From: Amoebophrya sp. A120
Taxonomy: Eukaryota > Protista > Dinoflagellata
DNA length: 64,000 nt
Reading direction: 5' to 3'
Assembly: GCA_905178155.1 (NCBI GenBank)
Contig: CAJINV010000005.1
Location: forward strand, 2,172,054 to 2,236,053
In this document: positions 5,563-34,764 of the stretch, piece by piece
Numbering within the stretch: the first letter of the stretch is position 1
Layout: every line of letters starts with the position of its first letter
Program-made: the position numbers and the translations under genes
Notes under the pieces: model-generated
Databases searched by the model: none
Told to the model about the DNA's origin: nothing
The model's input: only the letters and a program-made list of their open reading frames with translations

Positions 5563-8500
5563 ATGACGACCACCCCGCTACTGCCCGAACCCGGGAGCAG
5601 TCCAGCGACGTCCTCCAAAACGCCGCTTGCCAACGGGGACGAGCCACCTAGCAGTAAAAGGGACAGTTCCAAAATCAGCCACGACGCAGATGGAGCATCC
5701 TCTTCTTCCGCCCACGAAAATAATGATCACACCCGTGACTCCAAGGAATCCACGCACAGCAGACGCAAGAATTCGAAGGAAAAGGAAAACTCCAAAGAAC
5801 CACACGGAAATAATGCACCTGCCGGTCCGTCGAAATACCGCAACAAGCGGGACAAAGGACAACATCAGCACCAGAGCAACAAAACCGACAAAACGAACAA
5901 CCACCCCTGGTGGCGGAAGCGGAAACGGAAGGAGTTGACCGAGGGGATCGTGAAACTGAAATACGACACGGAGGACAAGCAGTACGTGTTTATCACGAAT
6001 GAAGAAGTATCCGCCGAGTACGCGGACAGCCCCGACATCTTCGCGCTAAAACGCGACTTCAAGGACGGGGAATGGCCGCTGGTCAACCGCGGGGACAAGG
6101 TGAAATTCTACCTGAAACAGTCCGACGACGGCACGAAGCCGATCGCGAAACGGGTCCGGTACGGCGCGGACGCCGGCGCTCGGGCGGAGCGGAAGGAGCA
6201 GGTTGGAAGCAAGAAGGAGATTTTCCCGAATTACTACACCGTTGAGAAAGTCCGGGCCGGGTTGATGGACGGAAGTTTGCGGGAGGGGATTTTGCGGGTG
6301 AATCCGAAAAAACCGTCAACCGCGTACGTGGATTTGGGATCAGCCAAGGACACGGCGAACAACGAACGGGATTTGCTAATCCAGGGCCACTCAAACCGAA
6401 ATCGCGCGGTCCACGGTGACCGCGTGGTGGTCCGGATTTTGCCGGAAAGGGAGGAGGACGCGCGTAACGCAGAGCTGAAGGCGAAAAAGAAGATCGAGGA
6501 CAGGTCGGAAACTATGATGTTGAAAAACATGGCGAAAAAAGCAATCGACCTGCAGGACGAAGCACTAGGTGGTGACGCCAGTCCGAATAGACCGGCGACC
6601 GATCTGCAGGATGCGTTGGACGCCGCGCTGGCCGATTCCTTTGATAATTTGAATGTTTCTACGGGCGGTGACAAAAAAGCGGAGGAAAAATCCTCTGCTT
6701 CGAAACGAACCAACGGTGTTGATGCAGCGGATCTAGGATCCGACGAGGATGAGATTGAGTCCGACGCAGAAGCCGATGTGTTGGACGAATTAGCGGAGGA
6801 AGAGGAGGAGGATTGGAACGACGAGGAAGAAGACCGAAAAAGCAATTTCAACACGGCACAGGTCGTCTTCATTGCCGACTACTCCGGCCGAAATCGAAGC
6901 TTCGTTTGCACCCTGTGCCCGAACAATAGTGAAGGCACGGCGGGGAAGACGTCGATGGTGAAGGAGAACGAGAAGTTTGTGAAGGCTTGTCCGGTGGATA
7001 AAAAGTTCCCGTGGATTTTGATCTACTTGAGGGACGAAGTGAAGAAGAAGCTGAAAGTCCCGGGAAAACTGGACAAATTCATGTACTGGTCCGTGAAAAT
7101 CGACAAGTGGGACAGCACGAGCATATTGCCGCTCGGGAATTTGGCCGAGAAACCAATCGGCAAAGCGGGGGACGCCGAGGCGGAGGTGATGAAGGCATTG
7201 GAGGAAACGGAATTGGCGGAACACAACAAGGACTTTGACGACGACATTTTGGACGAGGTACTTACTTTTTTGATGCACAAATCTCAACTCTTCGTCATAG
7301 TCTAGAAGAATTGAGTTTATTCCTGTAGGTCTTGCTGTAGCTTACACCGCAAGAATTTTTGTGGGCAGTTGTAGAACCTCAAACTGCTGAAGTCGTGTAG
7401 GAGTAGCAGTTCCCTTTTGATTATATTTCGCACTAAAAATCCGTAGTTCGAATTCCTGCCACGACCTACTGTTTGCTTATAAAAATCCTCTTATCCCAGG
7501 TCGAAGAGATCGTCCAACGCACCACGGAAACCTTCGAAGAAATCGCGGAGAAGCGGATAGACCTCCGGAAAGAACTGAAAAACGGGGTCCGGATCATGAC
7601 GATCGACCCGAAAACCGCCCGTGATCTCGACGACGCCATCCACGTGAAGAAGATTAACAACGAAATAACCGAATTCGGGGTGCACATCGCCGACGTCGCG
7701 CACTTCGTGAAGCCGGGGTCACACGTGGACAAAATGGCGAAATTCAGATGCACCTCCGTCTACATGCCGGACCGCGTTCTGCCGATGTTGCCCCATGCCC
7801 TCTGCAACCACCTGTGCTCGCTCAATCCGAACGAGAACAAGTGCGCCTTCTCCGTGTTCTTCCGCATCGACAACAACGGCGAGTTGATGGTGGACGAGAA
7901 AAACGAGTATCAATTGCAAAAATGTCTGGGTCTGGAAGATTGCAACTTGTCATGCTGTCTCTGGATTCCAAAAAAATCTGTATTGCGTGACCAACAACAG
8001 GAGTCCAGTTTGTGTTACGAAGGGAGGGCATTTCTCATGCGGAATAGGCATCAGGAAGCCTTCTATCTAAAAATCTGTGATGCTAGATCATGCATCACGT
8101 GCACTATGGCTCATAAAAAATATACATCACAAATCCCGGAATCTTCCAGACCCAGACATTTTTACAGTTGATAACGAGCCCTGGATCGCGAAAACGGTGA
8201 TCAACACCTGTTGTCGCTTCAACTACGACCAGGTCCTATCAAATGTAAAAATGTCTGGGTCTGGAAACCTGTAATGCTAAAAATGAATGATATACGCACT
8301 GCAGTACACAGCTATGCATGACAAATTTTTTGGCTGCCATGTCTTACGTATTCCGCATGGCAAACTGCGTTTTTGCATGACAGATGAGAGGGCTTTTTCG
8401 TGCCTATGCAACACAGATTCTCGAGTCATGCCAGACAAGCATGACAAACTTGCATTCTTCCAGACCCAGACATTTTTGCATTTGATAGGTCCAGGAAATC

Positions 8501-11026
8501 TACGACTTCGGCGGCGCGCAGGCGTTGACCGGCGACGCGCGGCCGGAGGTCTACCACGGCGCGAGCTGGGAGGAGTGCGTGAAGGATCTGTTTCTGATCT
8601 ACAAGGTCTGCACCAAGATCCGCAACGCGAGGTTCGGAAACGGGGCGCTGTCGATGCACAAATCGAAGCTGATTTTCAAAACGACCGACGCCTCCGCCGG
8701 CATGCCGACGGGGTACGCGAAGGAGGTGCATTCCCCCTCGCACTGGGTCATCGAGGAGTTGATGCTGCTCGCGAACAAATCGGTCGCCCGCGTGCAGCAG
8801 AAGCACGACGTGTTTGACAGCTTAGCCGTTCTGCGGAACCACCCGCCGCCGGACGAGAAAAAGGCGAAACGGGTTTTGGAAACCATGCAGCTCTGCGGAA
8901 TTGAGTACAGCAACTCCACGGCGGGAGACCTACACAAGTGCCTCACCAAGATCCACAAGATCTACGGAGAGGAAGTCGCGGCAACAGCCAGCATGCTCAC
9001 CATGAAGTGCGGGATGCGGCCAGCGTCTTATTTCATCGGGGAGGACGAGCCCCCGCACCACTTCGCCCTGAACTTTGACCAGTATACGCACTTTACAAGT
9101 CCGATCCGAAGGTACGCAGACGTGATGGTGCACCGGGTTCTGAACGCCATCTTGGAGAAGAAAACGAAGGAGCAATTCATGATCGAAGATTTGGACGACG
9201 CGGACCGCGAGGCGGTGCCCGAGAAGGATGACAATCTGCTCGGGAAATTAGGCGGGGGAAGGGGCGGAAATAAGCACGCGGAATTGAACACCGACGGACT
9301 GAGCGACGATGACTTGAACGACCAAGCTGGCAGCTTGCGGGGAACGCACAGGTAGGGTGATTTTTGTAAGTAGAAGTACAAACAAAGTGAAATTTTTTTG
9401 AAGCAGTTTTGTGTGTAGGAGGATGCGGGGGATGCGAAGGTTCGGGTAGGTGGAAAAATACTTTCACACTCAAAATGCGTACTACACAAGTCAATTTTCT
9501 AGTTGTCTTAATGCCGAAGCCTAATGGTTGTACATGACAAGCATAAAACTCCAGGCGTGGTGGCGGTCCCAAGCAGAACTACCAGAAAAACCTGAAGAAC
9601 ATGATGGACGACTACAATTCCTCTGGCTTCGTTCAACAAGACACTCTTCGCCCGAAAAAGGAAGACTACCCAGAGGCAAAAACCGCCACCGCGGCAGCTG
9701 CTTCTGGTGATGCTAAACCCACAGACGGTAGCACAACTGGGCCGGAGTTGAATGAGGACGGCACATTGAAGGTGGATGATGACGACAACAACGAGGAATC
9801 CGACAAGAAGTGCCAGGCGAACATCGCGATGGGCAACCAGTGCAAGTCGTGCAACAAAAAGAAAAAGGCGTCGAAGGACTGCCAGGAGGAACTGGACCGC
9901 GCGTGGTTCTGCATGCTGCTCCGGGACCAGAAGAACTGGTGGTACCGGGTATCCTAAGTGAAAACGTCCCCACACCAGAGTCAAATTGGGAAATCTGCTA
10001 GACAAATCCACCAGCTTTGGTTGTTTCGCATGACAGGCTTGCCCTCGTAGTGTAATCCTGTTTAGCTTATTCAGCAGCATCACAGATCTGGCATATCTTG
10101 CTGATTCTAGCATCACAAAGCCCAAAACACGACTAGAAAATGCGTCTCATGGGTCTCGGCATGAGAAACATTCTCAGCATGCAGATTTGCATTACAGCTC
10201 TGGGGTGGGGACGTTTTTACAAATGATACCGGGCCGCGACGGTAACCGAGATCCAGCCGGACGGCATCACTGTGTTCGCGCACGAGATTGGGAAGGAGAA
10301 GAAAATTTTTGTGACTGACATCCGGACGCACCACGACATCCCGAACCTGTTCGTAAAGGAGGTGAACGACGAGGTGATGCTTCCGGAGGAATTTGAGTAC
10401 TGGAGCAAGTCCCACATGAAGGTCACCTGGAGCAACAAAAAAGTGGAAGACACGCAGTTCCTTTACGGAGACGAAAGACCAGACTTGGAGGAAACCGAGG
10501 GGCAAGTGCTTGGAAGTACTATACGTTTTTACTTTAGCTGTCTTGTTTCGTGATTGATAGAAGCCGCGTCGCTATAAAAAGTTTACTATCTTGAGGTCCT
10601 ACATGATTTCGTACACATGCAGAAAAATTCTCAATCGCCATTGCTATCCGAATAACTACCACAGGCGACGTCGCTCCCCCGCCGGGAATGGACGTGATAG
10701 ACATTGAACAGATGACGGTGGAGCAGGACATCCATCTCCTCTCCGTGGTCCCCATTGTACTGATCCCGACCAACACCGTCCCAATAGACTTTGTGATGCT
10801 GCTCGTTTCCCCCTACCATGCGCAGTGGCGAAAAGTGGAAATTACGGACAAGGAGAGGCGGGGGTTCAACAACGCACCGGTGGAGTCGTTCGATGAAGAC
10901 GGCGACTCGGATGACGACGACAACGAGGACTACGGAACGCAAAGACGACCGCCGAAGAACGCGAAGGGAAAAGGAAAAAAAGGCGGAAAGAAGGGCGGTG
11001 GCAAAGCGAGAGGGCGGGCGAGCTGA
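5563..11026 (+). CDS. DIS3L2: DIS3L2-like RNase II/RNB family 3'-5' exoribonuclease
   Basis: RNRAVHGDRVVV (CSD), TIDPKTARDLDDAIH, GVHIADVAHFV, TSVYMPDRVLPMLP, HWVIEELMLLAN, HFALNFDQYTHFTSPIRRYADVMVHR; no PIN domain seen. GT-AG introns 7258-7499, 9352-9554, 10516-10664 plus three introners. Confidence 0.88.
7908..8173. mobile_element. Introner family A
   Basis: Family A TIRs; TSD ACGAG; removal gives DEKNEPWIAKTVIN. Confidence 0.92.
8237..8487. mobile_element. Introner family A (also readable as GT-AG intron 8233-8488)
   Basis: Family A TIRs; TSD GGTCC; removal gives NYDQVQEIYDF. Confidence 0.92.
9950..10228. mobile_element. Introner family B
   Basis: TIR core AAAACGTCCCCAC / GTGGGGACGTTTT; TSD CCGGG; removal gives WWYRAATVTEIQPDG. 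Confidence 0.9.
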
Positions 11027-14300: not shown

Positions 14301-17300
14301 ATGGCCCCGAAGAAGGAAGAGAAGGCCCCGAAAAAGGAGGCCAAGAAGGAGGAATCCAAGGAGGCCAAGGAGGTGGACCTCTCCGTGAAACCCCCGAAGC
14401 CGGATGACGCCGCCTTCAAGAAGCGCACGGACGAAGTGTCCGCGGAAATCGACGCCAAAAAGGCGGACATGAAAAAGCTCACCGACAAAATCTCCGGAAG
14501 GAATGAAGGTATACTAGAACGCTGACATGTTCATTTTTGAGAAGAAATTTATGCTCTACAGAAAAGTTGCTCTTGCTTCCTCCCCAGATTTAAATTTTGC
14601 TTTTTCATGATCATTTCTCGCGATTCCATTATCTTTATCTCCCAATCATTGATTCGATTGTGGCACTAGTAATTGCAAATTGTGCAACACAAAAAATCAT
14701 ACTATCCATCAGGTAAGGAGGCATACGATGAGCAGAAGCAGGCCCTCTACAACAGTATGAACAGCGTCAAATCCGAGCAGCAGGCTCTCATCGCACAGAA
14801 GAAGGCCCTGCAGGACCAGAAGCGCAACACAGAGAAGGAAGGTAGCACATCTGATGCTTTAGTTTTAAAAGAGGGAGTTTTTTAGAATTCTGTACACGTC
14901 CTGTTGCGGGACGGAATTTAAAGAGTGAGAGAGAGAAAAACGTCGATGTCCAGCAATGTCTTTCGAAAAAGAGAGTGTGAGAGCCATCTGATTGTCTGCC
15001 GAAAGGTGGAACCCCGGAAATTAGCCTTTAGATTTTATGACGCATGTTGATCATGCCCAGCAAACACTTTAAAAATTTGTTTGACCACGCCTCAATCCAT
15101 CGAAAAAACAGAGCGTGAGGCTAAGCGTCAGCTGTCCGCACTGGAGAAGGATGTTGCTCACTTGACGGAGGAGGGCATCGACAACGAAATCAAGAAAATC
15201 GAGTACACCATGGCCACCCGATCCATGTCGCTGAAGGAAGAGAAGGAATACATGCAGCAGATCAAGAAGTATTTTCATTTGATAATTTGTCTTTCTAGAC
15301 TTTGCTACTTGCAAATAGCTCGGTGTCGTGTCAAGCGATAGAAGTCATGCGATGGTTTTCATCTTTAGTGTGTAGTGACTTAGTTTTCGAATCGGTGCTG
15401 GCTATAACATGCATGGGAAGCTGCTGCTGCTGTAATACATCAACGCATATGCACACTTTCACTTTATCCTTATCAGGCTGAAGGCCCAGCGCCCCCAGGC
15501 TCAGAAGCAGCAGAAGGAGTACGAGGCCATGAAGGCGAAGGTGGATTCCGGCGCTCAGGTCGACCATAACGCTACTTTCGCTGGTATGCATTGCAAATGT
15601 GTCTGGGTCTGGAAACTTGTGATGCTGACTTGGGAACAGTGGACACAATGCAATACGCAGCCAAGCATGACAAGTTCTTAAGCTGCTATGTGTTGCAAGA
15701 GCTGCATGACAGGCAAAGTGCGCTTTTGCATGACAGGCAGGCGACTCTCATCTTGCTCATGCAGCACAGAGTTAGGAGTCATGAGAAACACGCATGACAA
15801 ACTTCCATTCTTCCAGACCCAGACATATTTGCATTTGATAGCTGACCAGCTGACCCAACTGGAAGCCGCCATCAAGGAGAAGAAGAGCTCGCATGAGGAC
15901 TTGTAAATACAGATTTTTGCTTTCGATTTGTTGTGGTGCGACCAGTGGTGCAACTCGAAACATTATAAGTAGTCGTATCGGTCTTGGCCTGATGGAAGTC
16001 GGAATGCAAATTCGAACACCAAATTTATCCTCGTCTAGCAGCACTTGTGGAACTCAGAGTTGCGGAAAGGGGATGTCAATATCTAAATCCCGCAATCTAT
16101 CCAAAAACACAGCTATGAGCAGATCCAGAAGCTGAAGCAGGATCGTGACTCCAAGATGTCCGGTGTGTCGGAACTCATCGCCAAAAAGAAGCAGCTGGCC
16201 GAAGACGTCCAGGAGTTGGTTGCCAACCGCAACGCCATCCACGAAGAGAAGCGCGCCATGCAGAAGACGTATTGGAAGATTTTGATGATTGTTTGTGTTG
16301 CAGATAACGAATACGGAATGCAGCATATTTACCTGCTCCGTGTGTGAATGACTTTGTGTTGCATGCTTTGCAATGTATGCTGTCCTCTGTTCCACTCTCA
16401 TGCAGGCGCCCTACAAGAACTAATGATTGGCAATAACACTATGACTATCCTATCAGATTCAACCAGTGGGAGCAGGCCGAGCGCAAGAAGCGTCAGCAGA
16501 AGATCGAGGCTGAGCGCAAGGAGTGGGAGGCCAAGGCCGAGGCGGAGCGCGCCAAGTGGGAGCTGGAGCAGCCGAACCCGTACTTGAATGAAACCACTTT
16601 GTTGGAACAGACTCTGGACTACTGCAAGAACTTGCTGCCGAAATCCGAGGAAGCCAAGGCTGAAGAGAAGAAGGAAGTCAACGCTCCGGTATTTTAAAAT
16701 CATCATAATGATGACACTGTGACTGATAAGTATCAATTGAACTGCATATAACTGTTCGCATAGTCAGTTGCCGTATTTTGTCATGCGGAGACTGAATCAT
16801 CTAACGAATTTGTCTAGCAAAATCGCATATGTCAACACTAAAAACAGGATGGCGTCCGAGTGCTGATGTCCAAGAAGGACCGTGACACGGAGATGTACTT
16901 CGAAGCCACCAAGAAGAAGAGCCTGAAGAAGAAGGGTATGGTCATTTTCTCATGCGTGCTTTTGGATTACAGCAGCATCTGTTCATCGTAATTGATTCTC
17001 CCAGAATGATGTTGTCAGTCGTTTCTCCTGCAGAACGAGGTTCTTTATTATCCAGAAATCACGACATTACGGACACGGAGCAATCAATACTACAGGTGGC
17101 GACAAGGCGAAGGCTACGGCCATCAAGCACACGGCGGAAACGTTCGCGATCTTTGACCAGCTGAAGGTGAAGGCCCCGATGACCACGGAACACATCCCGG
17201 CGCTCATGGACCAGCTGAACGGTCAGCTCGCGTCCTACATGGAGAAGGTCAAGGTCTGGGAGGCCGAGCGCGCCGCCAAGCTCGAGGCCGCCAAGAACGC

Positions 17301-17346
17301 CGAGGCCGATGCCCAGGCCACAACTTCAACCAACGCGGACGAGTAA
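14301..17346 (+). CDS. Coiled-coil protein, Bfr1/proton-pump-interactor-like
   Basis: Multi-exon K/E-rich coiled coil: KPDDAAFKKRTDEVSAEI, IDNEIKKIEYTMATRSMSLKEEKEYMQQI, QPNPYLNETTLLEQTLDYCK, IKHTAETFAIFDQLKVKAP; several GT-AG introns and one introner. Confidence 0.65.
15585..15840. mobile_element. Introner family A
   Basis: Family A TIRs; TSD GCTGG/GCTGA (1 mismatch); removal gives ATFA(D/G)QLTQLEAAI. Confidence 0.88.
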
Positions 17347-18995: not shown

Positions 18996-21900
18996 ATGCC
19001 GCCGAAATCCAAGGCGGCGCCCAAGAAGGAGGCCGGGCCCGCGGCGCCGGCCGCGGGGGCCGCGCAAACCGGCGGAGGAGGGGGCACGACGAGGCTACAG
19101 ATCATGCTAGATAAGAAGATCGTCACACCGGCCGCGTTGCAAGTACCCGCGGTCAGCTCACCGAAGGTGTCGGATAAGACGCTAGAAAAAACGTACGATC
19201 CGCACGGCACGGTAAAGAGGCAAGGCTCGGAGTTCGGGTTAGCAGCGAAAGCAAAGGTCGGTTTGGTGTAGTTGTTGGTGCTAGAGCGAGATCGATGTTC
19301 AGAAGCCACAGCCATAGCTGCACATCATGACATGTAGATTGAAGATGGGGTGACACTACACCATTTTTTTTGCATGGCACATCAAAGAAAACCGCACCAC
19401 AGTCTATCGAAGGGCACGTAAATCTGGAGGAGATGGTCGAAAAGTACTTGACAGAAACGGAAACGCAGACCCTCTTCTATCAAAATGAAAAATCCCCACT
19501 CCTCACATAAAAACGAAATTTCTGATGCTGAATTTGCGTAAGTACACAGATGTCTTGCAGTAGAGGACTGCAGGCCCATATCATGCCAATATGGAGAGGC
19601 TTCTGCCTAGGCACCCAGCATGAGGAACGTCTGTGCTGTAGTCCCAACAGCATCACAAATCGCCTCCATAATGGGGCGGAGCCTATGCCGTTGCCTTCTT
19701 GCAAAACAGACGCGATTCGTGATCACAAATAAGCGTCGCAAATTCTCTGAGGTGTGCCGTTTCGATATGGGGAGGGGGGATTTTTCCTTTTGATATCTTC
19801 GCGGTCCCAAGTCTCTGTGTCGCCCTCGATGACACGCAATTGCACGGCGCAGTATTCCTTCGATAAAGTTCGTGTAGTTTCGGATGTCCCTAAAAATGCT
19901 GATTCTGGTGCCCTCTGTCTCTCCTGCATGAAAACGAGGCTTTTCGAGGTGAGAAGTAGCAATCGATCGGAGCAGCGCAAACCTGCAGATTTGCAGCACA
20001 GAAAGATGCTTTTAAAAAAATCAGATAAGCGCCAAAAACAAGAAGTACGAGGAGCTGTTACTCGCAAAACGCAACGCCGCGGACCAGTTCCGGGGGCAGC
20101 ACCAGCAAACCTTAAATCCGGTGATGAAAACGAAGGAAATACTCGCACTACCACCAAAAACCCACTCGATGGGGGTGGACGCAACCGAGTGGGACATACA
20201 CGACACGTTTGCCACGAAGGCGATTCCAAAGCACGAGCAGATCGAGGGGAAGATCGTGCATGACACAGAGGTATTATTTGTATGCAAAACCCACCGTCGG
20301 TATTAAAGCTTTTAGGCTGCTGAATAAATCTTGATCTTCTTCTTCTGACTCTGTTGAAACCACTTGTTCCACGAGAGAAGTGCGGCTTTTTTCATGGTGC
20401 TGGAATGCAAAGAGCCAACAGTACTTATGAATGTAGTTCTAGAGGACCATGATGCAGCCGCGCAGGTGATGTTGCTGTTGTGAAATAAAAGGACCACCCA
20501 ACAGGAAAATAAAAAAACAGCTCCTGGTCGAGTCCGCGCTGAAGAAGAAGGGTTGCCTTTTCCCGTTAGAGGAAGCCTCCACTTCAGCGGAGGAAGGAGG
20601 CGATGCCCCTACCGGGGCTGCAGTTTGGACGTTACAGGAGGACGCGGACTTGCTGTCGCTTACCCACTCTGCGGCAATCATGGAAAAATCTGTGGTACAA
20701 AACGTGTTCCACGGGCAGCAAATGACCTACAGGAATTACCCAACTCTGGAACAGCTCGCGAAGGACGACGAAAAATGGCGACAGCAGAGTACTTATGATT
20801 TGCAAATATGTCTGGGTCTGGAAGGATGCCAGTTTTGTCATGCACATTTTGCATGACTCCTGATGTCTGTGATGCATGCCCTAGCATCACAGACTTTATG
20901 AGGGCTCTCCGATGCCTATACCGCATCACAAATGCCCTCTCGCCGTGGCAAAAACTGGACCTCTTTTGCTGTTCATGCAATACAGATTTATTGTAGAATC
21001 CAAATCCAGCATCACAAGTTGCAACCTTCCAGACCCAGACACTTTTGCATTTGATAGTACCCAAGTAGACAGCGACGCGGAGCAGCGACTAGGGGATGTG
21101 GGCAGTGTATGCAAAGAAAAAAGTGTTACAGTTACACATTGTGTTGCAGGACCGACAAGGCAGACAGCCTTTGTCATGCAGGAAATGCTTTGGAGCCTCG
21201 ATTCCTTCGTGTTTTCCCTTCTGATGTTTGCATTACAAGTTTCCTCTGCCACACAGAGAAAATTTGTGATGCAGAAATTCCAACAAATGTGTAACTGTAA
21301 CACTTTTTTCCTGTGATACAGTGGCGCGGAGGGGGAGAAAAAGGAGGAGGGGAAAGAAGGTAGGGATGTTTGATTATTTTGCTAGAACTACAACATCACG
21401 AATGACATTTTCGTTTTGTTGCTATTCATGTAGTTTCTGTCCCAGCATGTCAAACAGGTACTCACAGAATGAAATGTTCTACTCCCAATGCTGGCCTCCG
21501 GCTGCGGCATAACAACGAATATGATCGCATCCGCTATGAATTTCACTTTTGGCTCATTTGAAAAATAAAACTCTATAAAGGTGAAGCACCTCCTGAGGGC
21601 GAATCCAAGCCGGCGGACGTACCTGTCCCCCCAGTCGACTCATCGCACCCGCACCTCGCAGATTTGTTTTCGTTTGACGCGCCGGAGCTCACAAAAGGGC
21701 TGGCGACCACGTGTGCGGAATGGAACTCGCACCAAAACGACCTGCTCGCGGTCGCATACGGAGACACAAGTGCAAGCATAGACGCGCTGTCTGCAAGAAG
21801 AGAAAAGGACGGAGCAGCAGGTAGGATTTTATGTGAATAGATAAATCCGAAGAACGCAAGTGTGGGGGTCTTTCATGGCATGCTCGATTATTGGTTATGT

Positions 21901-24900
21901 AACCTCCTATTGCCAGCTAGGGGAGCACCCATGCGGTGGTAGGATCCAGCGCCCCTAGGTCGGGGGCGCTCCTGCCTTCAGCCGTATGGGAATCCGTGGG
22001 CAGAAGTATCCACTCGCGCGCCGCGCCCGCTCTAGTTAGGGTCTATCTTCGCTTTTTCTTCTCTTCATCCCACATCGACAGAACAAGCATATTCACTCAC
22101 GCGGTTCGCTCCGGCTACAGTGATCTACTTAAGCTTCTCTTTTGATTTTACACTGCAATATATCGCAAGAACCACTCTTCTCGAAATTCAAATTCTATCA
22201 GGTTTGATCCTGTTCTGGTCCCTGAAAAATCCGTCCTACCCGGAGCGAATACTCAAGACCTCTTCCGGCGTTAGCTCCCTAGCCTTCTCGCAAACGCATC
22301 CGTCCATGATCGCAGCGGGTCTCGTGGACGGAACCGTATGGATTGCAAATATGGCTGGGTCTGGAAGATTGCCAGGCTTGTCATGCTTGTCTGGCATGAC
22401 TCGAGAATATGTGTTGCATAGGCACGAAAGAGCCCTCTTAACTGTCATGCGAAAAGGGAGTTTGCCATGCGGAATACATAAGACATGGCAGCCACAAAAT
22501 TTAGCTGCGTATTGGGGCGCGTCTATCATTCACTTTTAGCATTACAAGTTTCCAGACCCAGACATATTTGCAATCCATAAACCGTTGCGGTCTACGATAG
22601 CAGGAGAGCCACGTCAACCCCGGTGCTGGTGTCTGGGAGCTCGGTCTCCACGCAAAACGACAGGAAACACACAGACTGCGTGTGGGAAGTGAAGTGGGTA
22701 CTGGGGAACTAGAAATATTAAGCTGGTTGTTTTTTATTCATGATGCAGGGTGCTCCGAGATCTTTTATTGAGGAAGAAATGAAAGCACGAAATTTAAATT
22801 TTTCCAATGTGCAAGGCAAACGAAGGCGTGTTCTATACTTCATTTTTCGCTAGGTAAGTCAAAACCAAGGCGGGTCAAAGTCGGCGACAGAGTTGGAAAA
22901 TCTCATGTCCGTGTCCGGAGACGGAAAGATTTTCCAATGGACGATGCGAAATATCAAATGTAAAAATGTCTGGGTCTGGAAGATTGGTTTGTCATGCACA
23001 TTTTGCATGACTCCTGATGCCTGTGATGCATGCCCTGGCATCACAGATTTTGTGAGAGCTTCCTGATGCCTATACCGCATGACAAATGCTCTTTCCGTGT
23101 AGCAAAACTTGGCCTCTCTTTGCTGCCCATGCAATACAGATTTTTTTAGAATCCGAAATTAGCATGACAAGTTGCATTCTTCCAGACCCAGACATTTTTA
23201 CTTTTGATGCGAAAAGGCTTGGAACAAAAGCAGCTGATGAACCTGAAGAGACTACTATCCTGAGTAAAAACGTACCCACACCAGAGTTGTAATGCAAATC
23301 TGCATGCTGAAAATGTTTCTCATGCGGAGCCTCATGAGAAGCATTTTCTAGACGTGTTTTGCAATTTGTCATGCTCCAATCAGCATGGTGTGCTAGATCT
23401 GTGATGCTGCTGAGCTAGCTCAAACAGCACTACACTACGAATCCAAATTTGTCATGCAAAACCGCCAAAGCTTGTGGATTTGTCTAGCCGATTTCCCATC
23501 TTGACTATGGTGTGGGTACGTTTTTACTCAGGATAACTACCAAACGCGCATCTAGGTACTGGAATGCATTTTTGGTATTGAAAATTTGTCATGCAGTGGT
23601 TCCTTGATGATGATGCCGCCACTGTATCGTGGCGGATCGCTCGTGCTTGAATTTTCGGAATTACTACACGTCGACATTAAACAATCAAGGGTCCAACGTT
23701 TTCCGCCCGGTAGAGGGTGGCACCCCGTACCAAGGGGGCGCGTTCCGAAAGGCCGCGGGTATGGCGGTCGACGTTTTAGACGCGAGCAACTACTTGGTCG
23801 CAACGGACGATGGGTTTGTACACAGGTAATAAATATAGTCCTCCCAGGTTTGCGTAGCAGAGTTTCTACAGGAGCGCGTTGCTGTTTTTTTGTCATGCAA
23901 AAATAAGTACGAGTACATCATTACTGCTTTTCGTCATGCAAAAGAAACACAATAACCACTTCACAGGTGTTCCGTCTCCCACAATGAGCAATACCTGGAG
24001 TCCTTCTCCGGCCACTCTGGTTCCGTCTACCGCGTGAGGTGTAACCCCTTCTACCCCAACATTTTCCTCACCTGCTCCGTCGACTGGACGGTGCGGCTCT
24101 GGTCCTGCAAAACGTCCCTGAATCTGCAGAAATTCAAGCGAGACGTGATGATGGACCACAGCGAAACCGAGGCGGAGAACGACGATATCCCGCAAGCCGT
24201 AGCGAGCTCGCAGTCGCACCAGATTCACCTGCAGGCGCCGCAAGTGATGAACTTCCAGTCGACAGATTTGACTCAGGCGGTGCAGGATGTTGTCTGGTCG
24301 CCGGATAACAGCACCAGCTTCGCAGCCTGCATGAACGACGGCAGGGTAATGTGCTTGAAAATGTATCTGTCTTGCTGGGTGCGAGCTGTTTATCTTTATT
24401 TTCTGATGCATAAAAGCACTATTTTACCAATGTTTAGCTTGAAAGACGAGAAAAACAATTTTTTATCTACTAAATTGCATACCACAGGTCGAGCTGTGGG
24501 ACCTTTCTGTGAAGCCACACGACCCGCTGGTGGTCCACCACCCGAGTAGTTTGAAGGGCAAAGAGAGAACGTTTGTCCGGTTCGCGCGCAACTCCCCGGT
24601 GCTGGTGTGCGGCGACGGGCAGGGCACCGTGGCGGTGATGCGGGCACACAACATATCCTGAGTAAAAACGTCCCCACACCATAGTCAAGATGGGAGGTCT
24701 GCAACACACATCCTCACGTTTTGGGAGTTCTGCATGACAAGTCTCCATCTGCAGAGTGCTGGCTAGCAAGGAAAGCCGCAAGAGTAAGCCAATTATTTCT
24801 CATCCTGTTTACAGCATTACAAATGTTGCCAAAACACGACTGGAAATGCTTCTCGTGGAGATGCGCATGACAAATCGATTCCTGACATTGCGCATTTGCA

Positions 24901-25025
24901 TGACAACTCTGGGGCGGGGACGTTTTTACACGGGATACAACACGCAGGGACCGGCGAACCTGCAGCACCCCGAGCAGGTGGACAGGCTGCTATCCATGAT
25001 CGCCGCGAACGAGTCGAAGAAGTAG
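18996..25025 (+). CDS. WDR78: WD40 axonemal dynein intermediate chain, WDR78/DNAI4-like
   Basis: ETETQTLFAVPSLCV, EWNSHQNDLLAVAYG, LILFWSLKNPSYPERI, KHTDCVWEVKW, QWTMRKGLEQKQLMNLKR, YLVATDDGFVHRCSVSHNEQYLESFSGH, FLTCSVDWTVRLW; ~8 GT-AG introns plus 7 introners. Confidence 0.78.
19478..19795. mobile_element. Introner family C
   Basis: TIR TATCAAAA.GAAAAATCCCC / GGGGATTTTTCCTTTTGATA; TSD TCTTC; removal gives ETQTLFAVPSL. Confidence 0.9.
20794..21056. mobile_element. Introner family A
   Basis: Family A TIRs; TSD GTACT/GTACC; removal gives WRQQSTQVDSD. Confidence 0.88.
21108..21318. mobile_element. Introner family E
   Basis: TIR GAAAAAAGTGTTACAGTTACACATT / AATGTGTAACTGTAACACTTTTTTC with TAT..ATA ends; TSD CAGTG; removal gives DVGSGAEGEKK. 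Confidence 0.88.
22337..22579. mobile_element. Introner family A (opposite orientation to 8237-8487)
   Basis: Family A TIRs; TSD AACCG; removal gives GLVDGTVAVYD (WD40). Confidence 0.92.
22952..23209. mobile_element. Introner family A
   Basis: Family A TIRs (right end ...TTGATG); TSD CGAAA; removal gives QWTMRKGLEQ. Confidence 0.9.
23256..23535. mobile_element. Introner family B
   Basis: Perfect 28-bp TIR TATCCTGAGTAAAAACGTACCCACACCA; TSD ACTAC; removal gives NLKRLPNAHL. Confidence 0.93.
24654..24937. mobile_element. Introner family B
   Basis: Family B TIRs; TSD CAACA; removal gives VMRAHNTQGPANL. Confidence 0.92.
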
Positions 25026-26057: not shown

Positions 26058-26121
26058 AACCTAGGAAAATACAAGACGCAATCCTTTCCCATGACAGAAT
26101 ACGTATGTTCCAGTATCTGGC
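26058..26121. repeat. ~64-bp local duplication (second copy split by TA element)
   Basis: AACCTAGGAAAATACAAGACGCAATCCTTTCCC...TATCTGGC recurs as 26146-26159 + 27305-27354. Confidence 0.85.
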
Positions 26122-26159
26122 ATCAGGTTCACTTGCTACCACTTCAACCTAGGAAAATA

Positions 26160-27302: not shown

Positions 27303-27323
27303 TACAATACGCAATCCTTTCCC

Positions 27324-30300
27324 ATGACAGAATACGTATGTTCCAGTATCTGGCCCGGTGTTTTTTGTTACCGTAGCAGCACAGAAGGGACAGAACACAG
27401 TTCGGAAAAATCAAAAAAAGCAGCAGCAGCCGCAGTTGCACTCTCGTCGTCGACAAGGAATAACAAGCTGGTTGTAACCTCTTCTGCACGACAACATCCT
27501 GAAGGCACTAGTCCTGCTTGTCCCTCATCCCACCAAGCGAAGCTTGTCGGGACGAAGGACAAAGGAAAGCAAGGAAGTGATAAAATCAACAGGATACAAA
27601 GCAATAAAGACGTTTTTGAGGTACGAAGAGTCGAACTGCCTCGCCAAGAAAATTACATTAGCGAAGACGAGATGCAATACACGACTTCGTACACGGCCAG
27701 CACGAGGAGCTCCCGCTTGCAGGCGGATGCCGTTGCGGCCGGGGGCGCGTGCTCGCGTGCCGGCGCAGCAGCGACTGGCGCTAGTTTTTCTCAGCTTCAT
27801 CAGGGGAAGAAGTTGAATGACAAAGAGCTTGCTGCCAACAAAATTCTGAAGCAGGAGAAAATATTAAATGGCGCTAGTGGAGGTCCACTTCAAAATGGTC
27901 AGCAACAGAGGGAAGTTGTAGCACAGTCAAATCTCATTTATTCCACGACCACCACGAGAAGCCGAGGGAAAACGGATCCTGCAATAAGTTGTCTTACGAC
28001 AACAAATAAGGCCACTTCATCGTCCACTGTGAAAGTAAGAGAGAGAATATCCAGCACGACTACAGCACCTACGCACACGACCTCCTGCTCCCAAGGAACA
28101 TCAACTACGAGCGTGGCAGCAGCCGGATCAGCAGCAGCCTCCTCGAAGCACAAAAGCTTGACCTCTAGTCCTTGCCCCAGTCGGAGAAGTAGAGCTGGGA
28201 CTACAGGTGAAACTGGCTCTGTAAGTGCGAAGAAGGGCGTGGCCGCAGGTGGATCGTCGGGCGGAGAAGTAGCGAATGGTGTGAACGACCCCGTTCCTGT
28301 AGTGACAGCGATCGCTTCGAATAGAAGTACTACGACGAGCAGAGGAGCTCGGACCAAGTCCGCATCTGGTGCTGTCGGAGTCGTAGGATCTTCCGACGTC
28401 GTGCCTGCTCCTGGAGAACGGAAGGAAGAAGCCGCAGCGTGTAGTCCTTCTCAAGGAGAGGAAGTCTTCGACGTGAAGCGGGGCCCTACAGCTTCTACTT
28501 CAGCCGATACGAAAGTCCCAGGCGAAGCAGGAGCAGGAGTAGCTCCTCAACAGCATCCGTCCACATCATTCGCTTCCGGAGCTGCAGATAAAAATGCTAC
28601 AGCTATTCTGGCCACGACAGTTCAGGAGTTAGACGACCAACTGGCGCGACTGAAAAAGGAAGAAGCTTTGCTGCTTCGTTCTTGCCTCTCCCGCGGTCTC
28701 CCGAAGTTGCAGGAAGTATCCGCGACCCGACTCGAGCAAAGCAGACACGAACGCGAGAGGCTGAAGCAGCGGCGGGAGACATTAACCGGCGAGCCCGCGA
28801 GTCCCGGCGGGGGGTATAATTACAACAGTAAAAAGAACCACGATCATCCGAGTACGCCGGTAAAAAATACCACGAAAACATCAAGTAAGGATTCACAAGA
28901 ACAAGTACTACACCTCAACGGAGGGCAGTCCGGTCAGTATCCACAGCCAAAATCTCCGCAGACTGTCGTGCACAGTAGGACCAAACGGGCGGAACAAAAC
29001 TTCGAGTCGTGTTCTGTTTCATCATCTTCCCAACCTACTGCTCAGAAGTACAACAACCACCCCTACCAGACAAACCAGGAGCGGCTGGTGGCGCGGCACC
29101 ACGCGAATGTAGCGCAGCAGAGTCAACGTAGCACAGGAACAACTTCAGAGCACAACACAGCACGAAAACTCCTCCCGTTCGGGCACGAGCCGGTCGCAGT
29201 GACCCCAACATCCAATCGGGGCGGCGCGAATAAACAAGCGAATTACATCAACAATCGGGCAGCTGGTACAACAGCTGCACACGAGAGTTCTAGCGCTACT
29301 TTCGCGAACCAGGCACAGCAGCTACTCAGCGGCGCTTGCTTAGAACTGCAGTCCGCGGCGCGAGCGGTCGCGGGTACGAGTCATTCTCAACATTCGCCTA
29401 GTGCAACAACTTCTAGCCGCAACGGGGTTAATAAAACGCCGACAAATAATAGTAGTAATTGTGCTACTACACCACCGGGTCATCATCTTTCGACGTCTAC
29501 CCGAACGCCAACGAACGGCAGTAGGAATTATTTTCCATCCTCTTCGCTCGCTCAATATCAACTGTAAAAATGTCTGGGTCTGGAAGATTCTAACACTTGT
29601 CATGCACGTTTTGCATGAGCCATGATGTCTGTGATGCATACCCTAGCAATACAGATTTTTTGAGGGCTTCTTGATGCGCATTCCGCATGACAAATGCCTT
29701 CTCAGCGTAGCAAAAATTGCATCCCCTTTGGTACTCATGCAATACAGATTTTTTTGGAATCCAAACGCAGCATCACAGGTTGCATTCTTCCAGACCCAGA
29801 CACTTTTCCATTTGATACTCAACAAGCTCACCCAAAAACTACCCCAAGCACGACTTCTAAATCTCTCCGGACCAACCGCCTGATGTTTCCGCCGATCAAC
29901 CCGCAGAGCGACAAGAATGTCGCGAAACCGCCGCTGTTTCCGGTTTTGAACGCGGAAACCCTGGGGAAGCGGAAAGTGACGGACCTGAAACCCGGGACCA
30001 AGAACGACTACTGCCTGAAATGCACCTCCGGCGCGTTCCGGGGCCGGTATCTCTACCCGTCGCCCGAGGGGGAACTGTTTGGGGGCGACGCGGAGAACCC
30101 GCACCTGACCATGCTTATCAAATGTAAAAATGTCTGGGTCTGGAAGATTCTGACACTTGTCATGCACGTTTTGCATGAGCCCTGATGTCTGTGATGCATG
30201 CCCTAGCATCACAGATTTTTTGAGAGCTTCTTGATGCCTATTCCGCATGACAAATGTCCTCGCCGCGTAGCAAGAATGACACTCCCTGTGGTACTCATGC

Positions 30301-33300
30301 AATACATTTTTTTTTGGAATCCAAATGCAGCATCACAAGTTGCATTCTTCCAGACCCAGACATTTTTACATTTGATAATGCTGATCGAGAACGCGGGTTT
30401 GGCAAACGTGCACGCCCGGATCGAAACCGGTTCGGCGGGAGGAGCGGGTTCAAGTGCTGGCGTCGTCGGGGGAGCAGTGGTTTCCGGATCGGAACAGGAA
30501 GGTGGGTCGAGCTCGAGTACTTCAGGAAGACCGCAGCTGTTCTTGGAGGCCGAACAGGGCGATACCTGGACGGCGGTGCGGTGGAACAGAAGTTTGCCGG
30601 TATGATTGTTTGGAATGCTATATTTGTCATGTCAGATCGCCTGCTTTATTCCAAAAGTGTGCCGGTCTGTGGGCGGTAAGGACAGCGAACATGACTTCTT
30701 TGCAGCATTCTAAATGAATGTTGCGCATAATCGATCCTGTTCTTGATATTGTATGTGACAACTACAACTACTCGAAAAACCGTAATTAGCGGCTAAGTTG
30801 GTACGGCCCACAGAACAAGAGCAAGCGAATGAAACTTTTTCCGCACGACTGCTAGCTCCTGCATTCTCCGACTTCCCGAGCTAAGTGCTGCAGGATTTCT
30901 CTCCTTCTGCTTTTTCCCTGGGGAAAAAACCGCGCGCGTCCGTACTTGAGATTTTGCGTTTTATTCACTCGATGACGATGATGCGCAAATGCAAAAACTG
31001 TGAGGCATAAGTTCCCTAATGGCGCGTGCCATTAGGGAACTTATGTTTTTGCATTTTCGAAAAACATAAGTTCCCTATTGGCACGTGCAACTAGGGAACT
31101 TATGGCTCGAGATTTTGGGTTTTTCTTTTTTTTCACTCCATCCTGCGAAAAGAAAACGCAAAAACTCTGAGGCATAAGTTCCCCAATGGCACGTGCCATT
31201 AGGGAACTTATGTTTTTGCATTTTCGAAAAACATAAGTTCCCTATTGGCACGTGCAACTAGGGAACTTATGGCTCGAGATTTTGGGTTTTTTTCACTCGA
31301 TGATGCGCAAGTGGAAATGCAAAAACTCTGAAGCATAAGTTCCCTAATGGCGCGGGCCTTTAGGGAGCTTATGTTTTTGCATTTTCGAAAAGCATAGAAA
31401 TAGATATCCTATTTGAGTGCGTAAATAGGAAGCTAGTCCTTTGATGAAGCTTTGGTTTTTTTCCGCAAAGGGAGCGCTTTGAAGCTTTGGCTTTTTTCCG
31501 CAAGAATAGAAAGGGAGCGCCTCGCCCTGGTGCAAGGGTTTTCATTTCTGCTCGTGTCATGGGGACCACGCACGGCGCGACGCAATAGCTTTCTTGTTTT
31601 GTGGCTCGGAAAGAGTTACCACTTTAGCCGCTTATTACGGTATGCCGAGTACTACAAACTGCTCCAAGAAAATAAATCGCGCAGTTTTTGTAAGTAGACA
31701 AAGCATCTTCAAAATAAACAGCTCCAGCCCGGGCAGGACGTGGAGTTCACCTCTCCGAACCTGACCCTCCGGCTGAAAGTCCAGGAAGGCGAGGTGGTGG
31801 ACGACGAGATTTTGGAGTGGTTGCGGCTGTACAGCAGCGAGGCAAGTCGCGAAGCGGTGAACCCGTCCTGCAAATCGCTGGAGGATCTCCGGGACAAAAC
31901 GCCCGAGCAGGTGATCACGGGAGATCCGGAGAAGATCACCGCCGGAATCCGGACCGGCTTGGAGGAACTGGGGAGACAGTAAGACTGGCTATAGTTTTGC
32001 GATGAATTCATAGTTGTGACGAGGAGTATAACCATCTAGAAGCAAGCTCCTCGGTTGATGGATCTTTCGCTTTTTGGAAAGCAGGAGCAGAACTTCAGCA
32101 AATAGTAAAGCTTTTTTCGTATAGATGAAAATCACGCATCAATTTTGCTTTTTCCCCCCATCTGCTACTGCGGCCATCAACCAGGTTTCCGCCCAACGTG
32201 CCGTACCCAAAGACGCGGTTGAAAATCGTCGACGAAGCTAGCGGCAAGGAGTACGCGAACGTCGGCTGGAGCGGTGGGCACGTGCTGTTGGAAAACCCCA
32301 ATTCTCCCGCGAAGAGCCTGGACACGTCGCAGTTGGACTTGTCTTCGGGCCGGGGCAGTTTGTCGCCGAGTCAGCGACGCATCGGCTCAAAAAGCTTGAT
32401 GGGTATAAAGATACAATTGATTCAAGAAGGCTTGTTTTTCGGTTTTTGATTTTGAAGGGTTGTTTACAGTGACCTTGTGTCATCAAATCTATTCATGTAG
32501 TTGAGAAAAATCTAGACTTGTGATCGTTCACCTATAAAAACGACAAATAACTGCCAACAGCCGCTGCCATCGAGCAGATGAACGGCATACGTGTCGCTTC
32601 CTCCGAACTCGAGCGCTCCGAGGCCTTCAGGATATGTTACTGCAGCAATGGAAAGTGGTACTGCCACTTCGAGCAGGAGTGCAACACGGGCAGCAAGCAC
32701 TGGCTGCGGCTTTTGCCGGGGCAGAAGCACAATCTGCAGCCGGGGGATGTCTTCAGGATAGGAGAGCTGGAGTTCGCAGTGTTGAGGTATACAAACTGAT
32801 CATTTTGGGTTTCTGTGATTGAATACAATACAACTACACGGTCAAATGTTGTGGAAAAAGGCAGAAAGTGCTAAGAATTTTCGCAGGAACTACAACCATT
32901 TTTCGCCGCGCAACAATTCTCCAGGTACAATTACGGCACGGCCTGCGACAAGGGGTTTCGAGCCAGCATGGAAGACGCCGAGCTGGTCGAGCAGGACCTG
33001 TGCGTGTCCTCGCACCGGCTCTGTTCCATGTTCAGCATCTACGACGGACACTGCAAGCGCGACTGCGTCGATTTCATCCGCGCGCGCCTGCATCTGGATT
33101 TGGCCTACAACCTGCAGCAGAACATCGACGAGACAGAAGACGTATATAGTGTTTTAGGATTTTGCATCAGAAGTAGATGGGTCATCTTGATGTTCACCAG
33201 AGTCGATAGAGCATAAAACAAAATGCATGTCACACAACTTTTTTGTAGCAAGACAAAGCCAACATTTTTTCACTGCATGTAAATCTAAATACAGGTCCAT

Positions 33301-34764
33301 TCCCTGGTCGGTCGCGCCATTTGGGATTCCTGTCTCGCGGTCGACGAGGCGTTCCGGCAGGTGACGCGGCCCAACCTGGGCTACGACCTGCGCGGCCCGG
33401 ACCCGGGGCCCAAGGAGGAAACCGACGCGGAACGCGAGGTCCGGGAGATGAATCCCGCCGGTGGGAACCAAATGAACCAACCGGCGAGTTCCGGGTGCGC
33501 GGCGGTGTTCGCCGTACTGCTCGGCACCAGTCTGTACGTGGCCTGCATCGGCGACAGTCGCGCGGTGCTCGCGCGGTCCGGAACGGCGTACGAGCTTTCC
33601 TGGGACCAGCGCCCCGAGCGCGACGACGAGCGCGAGCGGATTCTCGCCCGCGGCGGCTTTGTCTCCTTCAACCGCGTTTTGGGGCGCCTCGCGGTCTCCC
33701 GCGCGTTTGGCGACTACGAATACAAGTTTTTGAACCTGAAAGAGGTCTCCGGACCGCTAGTCATCGCGGAGCCGGAAGTCCGGTACTGCGAACTCGAGGT
33801 ATCAAGAGTAAAAATGTCTGGGTCTGGAAGAATGCAACTTCTGATGCTGAATTTGGATTCCAAAAAAATCTGTATTGCATGAGCAGCAAAGGGAGTGTAA
33901 TTTTTGCTACGCGGAGAGGGCATTTGTCATGCGGAATAGGCATCGCGAAGCCAAATCTGTATTGCTAGGGCATGCATCACAGACATCATGGCGCAGGCAA
34001 AACGTGCATGACAAGTGTCAGAATCTTCCAGACCCAGACATTTTTACATTTGATACGAGGAAGAGAAGGACGAATTTCTGGTGCTCGCCTGCGACGGCCT
34101 GTGGGACGTGATTCGCTCGCAGGAGGCGGTTATCAAACGCAAAAATGTCTGAGCCTGGAAGATTGCAACTTGTGATGCTGCATTTGGATTCCAAAAAAAT
34201 CTGTATTGCATGAGTACCGAAGGGAATGCAATTTTTGCTACGCTGAGAAGGCATTCGTCATGCGGAATAGGCATCAAGAAGCCCTCAAAAAAATTGTATT
34301 GCTAGGGTATGCATCACAGACATCATGGCTCATGCAAAACGTGCCTGACAAGTGTCAGAATCTTCCAGACACTTTTACAGTTGATAGCGGTGGACTTCGT
34401 GCACGAAAAATTGGCGGAGCAGCGGGCGGCGGCGAGTGGGTCTTCTATGAAGGAAACCAGCCCGACCCAAGAACATCAAGTATCCGCAAACAACGCGGAC
34501 GCAACAACCTCGCCGATGTCGGCAATCGGCACCGCAGAGCCGGTGATGATTGACCCGGACGCGATTGCCAAGGCACTAGTGTACGAGGCGATTCACGTGC
34601 GCAAATCCCGGGACAACGTCTCTTGCGTCGTCGTGTTGTTACAGAAGGAGTACAAGCCAAAACCCGCCACGAGCCCGGCGTCGAGTGAGGGAATGGTGCC
34701 AGCGGCCGGAGGAGCAGCGGAGGATACCAGTGGCTTGCCGGAAGGCGTGGAGGCCGTCGACTGA
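27324..34764 (+). CDS. PP2C (PPM) protein phosphatase with long low-complexity N-terminus and FHA-like domains
   Basis: GFRASMEDA, FSIYDGHC, LYVACIGDSRAVL, RVLGRLAVSRAFGDYEYK, FLVLACDGLWDV, SRDNVSCVVV; FHA-like LQPGDVFRIGELEF. True start may be ATG 27672. Four introners plus GT-AG introns. Confidence 0.82.
29556..29817. mobile_element. Introner family A
   Basis: Family A TIRs; TSD CTCAA; removal gives SLAQQAHPKTT. Confidence 0.92.
30116..30377. mobile_element. Introner family A (close sister of 29556-29817)
   Basis: Family A TIRs; TSD ATGCT; removal gives PHLTMLIENAGL. Confidence 0.92.
30771..31649. mobile_element. Non-autonomous TIR element with TA TSD, inside GT-AG intron 30600-31720
   Basis: Ends CTCGAAAAACCGTAATTAGCGGCTAAGTTGGTA / TACCACTTTAGCCGCTTATTACGGTATGCCGAG; TA at 30769-70 and 31650-1; TIR related to 26160-27302. 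Confidence 0.78.
31006..31373. repeat. Tandem array of five 40-bp palindromes (~165-bp dimeric period)
   Basis: CATAAGTTCCCTAATGGC-N4-GCCATTAGGGAACTTATG variants at 31006, 31065, 31173, 31232, 31334 with alternating repeated linkers. Confidence 0.9.
33800..34055. mobile_element. Introner family A (also readable as GT-AG intron 33799-34059)
   Basis: Family A TIRs; TSD CGAGG; removal gives CELEEEKDEFLVLACDG. Confidence 0.92.
34131..34386. mobile_element. Introner family A
   Basis: Family A TIRs (6-bp deletion in right TIR); TSD GCGGT; removal gives SQEAVDFVHEKL. Confidence 0.9.

Follow-up and report, generated by a model that had tools for sequence, protein, structure and literature searches.

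Introner elements of Amoebophrya sp. A120 are missing from likely transcripts and annotated proteins in either orientation

Introner elements have been described in Amoebophrya sp. A120 as 1,954 families (Farhat 2021, PMC7789003); they carry an inverted repeat of TAT, seven bases and AAA, direct repeats of 3–5 nt and RNA-supported non-canonical ends, have a mean length of ~240 nt, and a hairpin was already proposed for them (Fig. 4 of that paper). The same paper reports U2, U4, U5, U6 and most spliceosome proteins in A120 while U1 was not found (section 10), leaves the cut position open, with cut positions called variable or unknown in the legend to Fig. 3, and does not discuss element orientation, the four matches to "orientation" in its main text concerning genes. 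It has been a question since 2021 how more than 60% of the introns of A120 and A25 are removed although they lack GT-AG and no U1 has been detected, and we found no published account of element orientation and cut register in A120.

TIR/TSD transposons that give introns in either orientation are known from Polarella glacialis (ILE classes 1, 2, 3, 6, 7, 8 and 10; 10.1101/2020.10.14.339549) and, as summarised in the same source, from Aureococcus (Huff 2016). The elements studied here belong to the introner elements of Farhat 2021 (PMC7789003). With the elements, the hairpin idea and two-way introners elsewhere already published, what is gained is a limit on possible mechanisms and not a new system.

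Elements of the window and their host genes

The window, a stretch of 64,000 nt, derives from Amoebophrya sp. A120, the proteins P0001, P0057 and P0062 bearing that name at 100% identity. One TIR family, with TAT…ATA ends and TSDs of 5 nt, is present in it 14 times, nine copies having one orientation and five the other, all located in exons of the + strand. The TIR starts with TAT, followed by ~7 variable bases and at least three A, and the element boundaries given in the initial annotation are exact. Subfamily A is represented by forward copies (+ strand) at 292..543 (TSD GAAGA), 8237..8487 (GGTCC) and 15585..15840 (GCTGG/GCTGA) and by a reverse copy (- strand) at 22337..22579 (AACCG). Forward copies of subfamily B are situated at 20794..21056 (GTACT/GTACC), 22952..23209 (CGAAA; terminal A replaced by G), 29556..29817 (CTCAA), 30116..30377 (ATGCT), 47762..48032 (GGGCG) and 63182..63443 (CGCCA), and reverse copies at 7908..8173 (ACGAG), 33800..34055 (CGAGG), 34131..34386 (GCGGT; 3' TIR shortened by a 6-nt deletion) and 48085..48353 (CGGAG).

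A DIS3L2/RNB gene harbours the copies at 7908 and 8237, and a WD40 gene, which we take to be dynein-IC-like, those at 20794, 22337 and 22952. Four copies are found in a PP2C gene, 29556 and 30116 in the long N-terminal part of a 1556-aa ORF that includes the PP2C domain, 33800 in the domain, and 34131; 47762 and 48085 share one gene and 63182 lies in a galactosyltransferase gene. Three other TIR families are present. Family C, also TAT...ATA, has forward copies at 9950..10228 (+; CCGGG; DIS3L2 gene), 24654..24937 (+; CAACA; WD40 gene) and 43690..43977 (+; CTTCA; adaptor mu gene) and a reverse copy at 23256..23535 (-; ACTAC; WD40 gene) with 81–82% identity to the reverse complement of 9950 and 43690, while families D (19478..19795, TCTTC) and E (21108..21318, CAGTG), both in the WD40 gene, are given no strand. 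When 169 related loci were compared, overlap with the window was confined to the elements, and viral contigs searched for window matches gave none.

The TSD is exact in 12 of the 14 window copies and in 120 of 144 copies on related contigs; among the 14, a mismatch at the fifth base occurs at 15585 and 20794 only. The initial annotation had placed all host genes on the + strand with their frames restored, and both points were upheld: annotated A120 proteins or Pfam domains give the + strand for 11 copies and a coding model for the remaining three (292, 47762 and 48085), deletion of the element with one TSD copy opens a + frame in 14 of 14 cases, and every retained element brings stops in all three + frames. 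Pairwise alignment of the interiors (35 nt of TIR stripped from each side; shuffled background 53±2%, maximum 58%) likewise agreed with the description of 8237..8487 and 22337..22579 as reverse-complement relatives, their identity being 85% on opposite strands and 52% on the same strand. The PP2C copies 29556/30116 had been assigned one orientation and 33800/34131 the other; same-strand identity is 88% and 87% within these pairs, while between them it is 55–61% on the same and 85–91% on opposite strands.

Absence of the elements from likely transcripts

Likely-RNA contigs and annotated proteins of A120 lack elements of either orientation, and with each element exactly one copy of the 5-nt TSD, which supports the removal regardless of orientation claimed earlier. 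The four PP2C copies, two per orientation, are missing from single RNA-like contigs in X4 and X6, two samples of one study whose RNA status is presumed only from the skipping of GT-AG introns, and are kept in DNA-like contigs. In both samples position 29550 is joined straight to 29818 (267 nt, the element plus 5), for 30116 the 1140 letters predicted without the element equal the 1140 present, and for 33800 the predicted length of 70 is the one observed. For the WD40 gene the size of an RNA-like contig matches the loss of all seven elements, and at 24654 161 letters were predicted after removal and 161 were seen; these contig data show presence or absence of elements and not removal efficiency. 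Junctions at read level covered the copies within 19000–36000, and in the raw RNA run X9 six partial reads matched.

Exact removal is also demanded by annotated proteins at 7908, 8237, 15585 and 22337. P0001, P0057 and P0062 are reproduced by exact element removal, P0062, of the DIS3L2/RNB gene, in 441 of 441 aa across both 7908 and 8237 with 11 homologs aligning through, and 13 orthologs are colinear across the insertion site of 22337. Joins produced by assembly or annotation, with one orientation in fact retained, are regarded as the least probable explanation: a direct join is shown for 29556 only, the other removals being taken from record coordinates or gene models, but 31-mers are not bridgeable by a 5-nt repeat, the lengths are base-exact in two samples and orthologs from elsewhere align without a break through sites of both orientations.

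Excision at the DNA level, as for ciliate IES, would cut the elements from expressed DNA and make orientation irrelevant. Precise transposon excision resembles TA-ended TIR elements leaving with one TSD copy, and rare empty sites may exist, 530 joints lying beyond the matches listed. However, DNA-like X1 contigs pass from unique exons into the TIRs unbroken at a depth of 25–27, equal to that of unique sequence, the elements stand at full depth in DNA-like contigs, and a cut within the TSD by which the base of the right copy is retained suits splicing equally, leaving this explanation very improbable.

Cut position and signal for removal

With related contigs included, 57 forward and 71 reverse copies were counted (p=0.25), and a stricter set showed a skew within subfamily B (17:33, p=0.03 uncorrected). 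Before counting, 8 of 144 copies were dropped because their TSDs differed at over two positions, then 15 of 136 whose strand was not confident or consistent and 7 of 121 with unclear orientation; a strand caller using junctions only missed 2 of the 14 window copies at a margin of 1.3. Only 13 of the 128 oriented copies offer G[TC]-AG at any cut, and AG is absent from all six cut positions within the TSD in 60 of them; since 29556 and 30116 are among these 60 and yet are removed, a canonical 3' AG is not required, in line with the initial annotation. Expressed as register k, the number of bases between the closing ATA and the 3' cut, GT-AG can be read in 8237 at register 1 and in 33800 at register 4, while 29556 lacks both AG and GT in every register and 34131 has no register with G[TC]-AG. 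Sites compatible with G[TC]-AG numbered 10 of 82 against 5.1±2.2 expected, and the TSD composition is close to the exon background.

At 15585 Asp201 of the protein carries the fifth base of the right TSD copy, showing a cut inside the TSD before that base; the register estimate is based on this one copy, which bounds it only to k≤4, and the candidate ends are CT-AG at k=1 and GT-TG at k=4. Copies with TSD mismatches are register markers usable with existing reads. Polarising the mismatches by AT-biased mutation was rejected, TIR sites being unbiased (W>S 60/4005, S>W 24/2403), and polarising them by coding score gave no signal in 16 cases. TIR positions 1–2 never vary at the sense 5' end among the 135 copies and show three variants at the 3' end (one 3'-TIR-variant copy of an earlier consensus count is absent from this one), an asymmetry of 0 versus 3 that is not significant.

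On the sense strand the outermost ~34 nt at either end do not differ between the orientations, with one 34-nt consensus for the four family/orientation groups. Removal either way is probably due to these mirror-image ends being identical on the sense strand both ways; on this view the indifference to orientation simply follows from the symmetry of the TIR and by itself tells nothing of the chemistry. Of the forward copies 48 of 57, and of the reverse copies 58 of 71 (106 of 128 in all), carry a motif GCAT[GCT]AC[AG][AG] at a distance of 30–60 nt from the 3' end. The initial annotation had inferred a signal that is symmetric and not stranded: orientation does not decide this contrast, and a hairpin in place of a stranded signal does not follow, since ends and subterminal motif are alike on the sense strand. 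Of the counter-evidence it had named, a branch point and a 3' AG belonging to each orientation, half is found: the motif is present both ways, and the AG is not needed.

Such a motif could serve a spliceosome reading from the 3' side, with a stranded branch signal GCAT[GCT]ACAA 36–48 nt from the end in each orientation and a cut one base past ATA (T-A-N, a YAG minus G; register 1). In this register 8237 has GT-AG ends and 15585 an AG acceptor, and it fits the AN acceptor listed, under the junction placement of that paper, for eight of the nine commonest non-canonical classes of A120 (Table S4, PMC7789003). Against this, none of 21 canonical introns has the motif in the same zone, and within the elements it is repeated on both strands, as expected of a subterminal repeat of a transposon; moreover 23256 (family C) is removed without the strict sense motif, and the closing ATA may vary, 22952 ending in ATG. 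Generic YTRAY is not enriched near canonical acceptors (4/21), and no branch motif common to elements and the 21 canonical introns was found. The 3'-side reading is on balance quite unlikely.

The explanation we prefer, at about an even chance, is that a relaxed spliceosome reads only the TIR ends of non-autonomous TIR transposons in exons, in either orientation. The 5' cut would fall one base before the TIR, giving an intron that begins N-TAT, the commonest donor GTAT minus its fixed G, and the 3' cut would fall four bases past the closing ATA, presumably set by distance from the TIR end (through a sequence motif, a paired stem or both) with no dinucleotide. At register 4 N-TAT would match positions +2 to +4 of the GTAT donor; the 21 canonical introns have GTA in 20 cases and GTAT in 11, and the nine commonest non-canonical classes all have an NT donor (Table S4, PMC7789003).

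Folding predicts a paired stem whichever way the element lies (z = -6.1 for 29556 and -2.2 for 34131), the terminal ten pairs having a mean pairing probability of at least 0.58 in 13 of 14 copies and 0.29 in 15585. It could point to a Euglena-like route, equal to the earlier hairpin proposal, in which the stem joins the ends and the cuts are made at set distances from it by a non-spliceosomal or separate machinery that frees circles. This route needs no dinucleotide, agrees with the hairpin of Farhat Fig. 4 and with a U1 not found in A120 (PMC7789003), and its geometry at register 4, N1-stem-N4, resembles the Euglena code N3CDG...CH'GN5-6 (PMC12501133). However, any TIR element folds thus by origin, 34131 with its TIR deletion and the weakly paired 15585 are removed nonetheless, and inverted repeats are found in only ~30% (first screen) or 68% (HMM) of RNA-supported non-canonical introns of A120 (PMC7789003). 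Mismatches in the sense-strand stem are not in excess as G.U over A.C (64 versus 58, p=0.65, low power), and the difference within TSD pairs is 2.5% per position, that of the TIR 1.8% per site, so that by these two tests neither RNA pairing nor identity of the TSDs shows signs of being selected for. The hairpin juxtaposing the two TSDs thereby received no positive support, and the other branch of the original proposal, the TIR motif itself, stays the better one; the Euglena-like route is judged rather unlikely.

Near-equal orientation, unconstrained target sites and the register markers leave the TIR ends as the place of the signal, as the preferred explanation has it. Tentatively, and at less than an even chance, A120 may possess a universal rescue of every TAT...ATA insertion flanked by a 5-nt TSD, at any exon position and in either orientation, in a fixed register set by the TIR without AG or U1, by a U1-less spliceosome ruler or a second machinery convergent with that of Euglena. 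A TIR-end signal would explain how tens of thousands of exon insertions could spread cheaply.

Comparison with known systems

As described for A120 introners, the window copies are repeated, missing from likely-RNA contigs and mostly non-canonical in their ends. In Polarella and Aureococcus (10.1101/2020.10.14.339549), G[TCA] donors and the acceptors come from the element or a constrained TSD and one orientation is favoured, whereas in A120 the TSD is near background and only the 13 of 128 copies mentioned supply G[TC]-AG in any register. Fritillaria borealis also has MITE-derived non-GT/AG introns, there removed by a modified U2 spliceosome (PMC11282704, PMC13326754), but with preferred AG-AC/AG-AT ends and U1 retained, while A120 shows no preferred acceptor and its U1 was not found. 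The nonconventional introns of euglenids (PMC12501133, PMC11282704) resemble the A120 elements in their MITE-like origin, in having inverted motifs at the ends and direct repeats at the junctions, in lacking GT-AG and probably in a fixed spacing from the inverted motif. The A120 ends, TAT...ATA, differ from the euglenid code N3CDG...CH'GN5-6|R, and where Euglena has a CAG/CTG code and circular products, A120 has TAT/ATA and TIRs of ~30 nt.

Copies in both orientations

When the window was scanned for the TIR core, 14 complete copies of 243–271 nt were found, with 5' TAT and 3' ATA ends (ATG in the copy starting at 22952) and TIRs some 30 nt long. Each is flanked by a 5-nt TSD whose two copies agree exactly in 12 of the 14; at 15585 and 20794 they disagree in the fifth base. 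Subfamilies were assigned after the TIRs had been stripped: A consists of forward copies at 292, 8237 and 15585 and a reverse copy at 22337, and B of forward copies at 20794, 22952, 29556, 30116, 47762 and 63182 and reverse copies at 7908, 33800, 34131 and 48085. The initial annotation described 8237 and 22337 as reverse-complement relatives and the copies in the PP2C gene as lying in two orientations; pairwise alignment without TIRs bears this out, the former pair being 85% identical on opposite strands against 52% on the same strand and two PP2C pairs 85–91% identical across strands (shuffle background 53 ± 2%). Its statement that frames are restored on the + strand also held, as deleting the element and one TSD copy opened that frame at 14 of 14 sites. 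The second TIR family, C, likewise occurs in both orientations, its copies 23256 and 24654 lying within one gene, the WD40 gene, which we take to be dynein-IC-like.

At least two further TIR families, with other TIR cores and the same TAT...ATA ends and 5-nt TSD, were seen at 19478, 21108, 49003 and 50511; 21108 and 49003 have TIR words in common and hint at opposite orientations. A TAT...ATA element of ~650 nt with decayed TIRs (46579–47227; TSD AGTCC/AATCC, the difference being synonymous) is possibly an older or expanded copy.

A scan of metagenome contigs gave at least 169 loci, the 80 rows listed being JACKZZ01 contigs, which need not be A120; copies outside the window were judged by sequence alone, not by RNA. 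The 169 loci contain 144 complete copies, of which 120 carry a perfect 5-nt TSD, and removal of the length plus five nucleotides gave the best coding score for 88 of 136. Strand was called from the flanks, a procedure that assigned 22 of 22 window elements correctly with flanks of 800 nt and 19 of 22 with 70/300 nt, gave zero wrong calls at the threshold used and oriented 121 of the 136 copies listed. Together with the window, the 128 clearly oriented copies divide into 57 forward and 71 reverse (p = 0.25), with 18:17 in subfamily A and 39:54 in B (p = 0.15); an earlier, stricter set gave 17:33 for B (p = 0.03).

Removal in contigs and annotated proteins

Contigs from four of the 11 listed sequencing runs were compared with 19000–36000. 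Runs X4 and X6, two samples of one study, are putatively RNA by automatic guess, and GT-AG introns are skipped in both. In one contig of each, 29550 is joined directly to 29818, the gap equalling the forward element 29556 plus 5. By contig record coordinates, 30110 to 33295 spans 1140 letters and 33794 to 34387 spans 70, exactly as predicted with 30116 and with 33800 and 34131 removed, respectively; the removal of these three copies is thus inferred by length. For removal of 24654 from the WD40 gene the prediction is 161 letters, which is the number present in X4 record 9; upstream, the record counts 1754 letters against an expectation of 1757 (from 19000, without six elements), and the depths of two bins agree (12.6 and 12.2). 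Among the joints listed, contigs of run X1 run on from unique exons into TIRs at a depth of 25–27, so the elements stay in the DNA. Excision at the DNA level (IES-like) and artefact are, taken together, highly improbable.

The X4 and X6 contigs also skip 1233 nt at 26076–27308, joining the 3' region of the WD40 gene to the 5' part of the PP2C gene. This region has 39-nt inverted arms (26158–26196/27266–27304) and at its ends a direct repeat of ~45 nt, long enough that the skip could be an assembly short-cut; a real removal is possible. Nested palindromic repeats, multi-copy by depth, lie at 30987–31396 in the PP2C gene, within a canonical intron of 1122 nt.

Searching with an exon brought up a protein of 797 aa, recorded as Amoebophrya sp. 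A120 and identical to the spliced model of 18996–25040 with seven TIR elements taken out, and 13 orthologs are gapless across 22337 (reverse) and 22952 (forward). In the DIS3L2 gene, removing 7908 (reverse) and 8237 (forward) gave a model that agrees with the annotated protein P0062 at 441 of 441 residues; the two copies enclose an exon of 19 residues, which is conserved in the 11 homologs aligned. Since A120 gene models were derived from transcript alignments, according to the text of Farhat 2021 (PMC7789003), such proteins are indirect RNA evidence. Absence of forward and reverse copies from both the contigs and the annotated proteins bears out the initial proposal that removal ignores orientation. 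The annotated protein retains a 15-nt exon (23541–23555) that is bounded by the reverse-oriented family C element 23256 on one side and by a GT-AG intron on the other.

Splice signals, stem and cut position

TSD composition is close to the exon background. G[TC]-AG is available at any cut within the TSD in 7/57 forward and 6/71 reverse copies, and 60 of the 128 have no AG at any such cut (window and loci listed), which bears out the initial view that a 3' AG is not needed. An 82-copy set showed a mild excess of compatible sites (10 versus 5.1 ± 2.2 expected); a GT-AG register exists for just one of the four PP2C copies with RNA support, 33800. The two TSDs of a copy differ by 2.5% per position, spread over all five, and TIR sites by 1.8% each, both figures being subject to ascertainment; perfect TSD identity is therefore not required.

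On the sense strand the first and last 34 nt are alike by consensus in all four subfamily/orientation groups, and a motif, GCAT[GCT]AC[AG][AG], lies 30–60 nt from the 3' end in 48/57 forward and 58/71 reverse copies (window and loci listed). A stranded reader of the ends thus sees the same thing either way, so orientation does not decide the mechanism. The motif was found near the acceptor in 0/21 supported canonical introns and recurs internally in the elements, and it may therefore be a transposon subterminal repeat; removal at register 1 (3' cut one base past ATA) with its own branch motif is considered unlikely. The initial annotation favoured a symmetric signal (a TIR hairpin or the TIR motif itself) over a stranded branch-point signal. 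A TIR stem is indeed predicted for both orientations; the step to a hairpin in place of a stranded signal is unproven, given the shared ends and motif and equal G.U and A.C mismatches in sense-strand TIR pairing (64 vs 58). The copy 34131 is removed exactly despite a 6-nt TIR deletion. Stem-guided removal as in Euglena is rather doubtful.

At 15585, the annotated protein P0057 is reproduced only with the fifth base of the right TSD copy kept (Asp201, an Asp also in P0058 and P0059). The cut therefore precedes that base, making the left copy's G intronic and giving G-TAT; this fits register 4 (four left-TSD bases kept, 3' cut four bases past ATA) or a lower one. Canonical donors read GTA in 20/21 cases and GTAT in 11/21. 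TIR positions 1–2 show zero variants at the sense 5' end and three at the 3' end, a non-significant difference (135 copies, window and loci listed). All nine predominant A120 classes in Table S4 of Farhat 2021 (PMC7789003) have NT donors, which fit register 4, and eight have AN acceptors, which fit register 1. A relaxed spliceosome that would cut at register 4, with the 3' cut placed by distance, is the favoured reading, held at about even chances. In the 21 canonical introns, the acceptor region is A/C-rich in most cases and lacks a distinct pyrimidine tract, and position +5 shows no conservation (T 9, G 6, A 5, C 1); canonical introns too thus have weak standard signals.

Relation to described systems

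The elements are real and part of an already described system: the text of Farhat 2021 (PMC7789003) covers the A120 elements, the RNA data supporting them and the hairpin. For A120 elements, neither orientation nor a fixed register was found in literature searches whose scope left out most subscription journals (e.g. Current Biology 2019, 2023), or in searches within PMC7789003, the review PMC11282704, the Euglena paper PMC12501133, PMC13326754, PMC12005148, the Roy preprint, and Gozashti 2022 and 2025 (PMC9860276, PMC12130899), whose datasets may list A120 families or orientation. In Polarella, classes occurring in either orientation are reported in the text of the Roy preprint (10.1101/2020.10.14.339549), which also cites Aureococcus.
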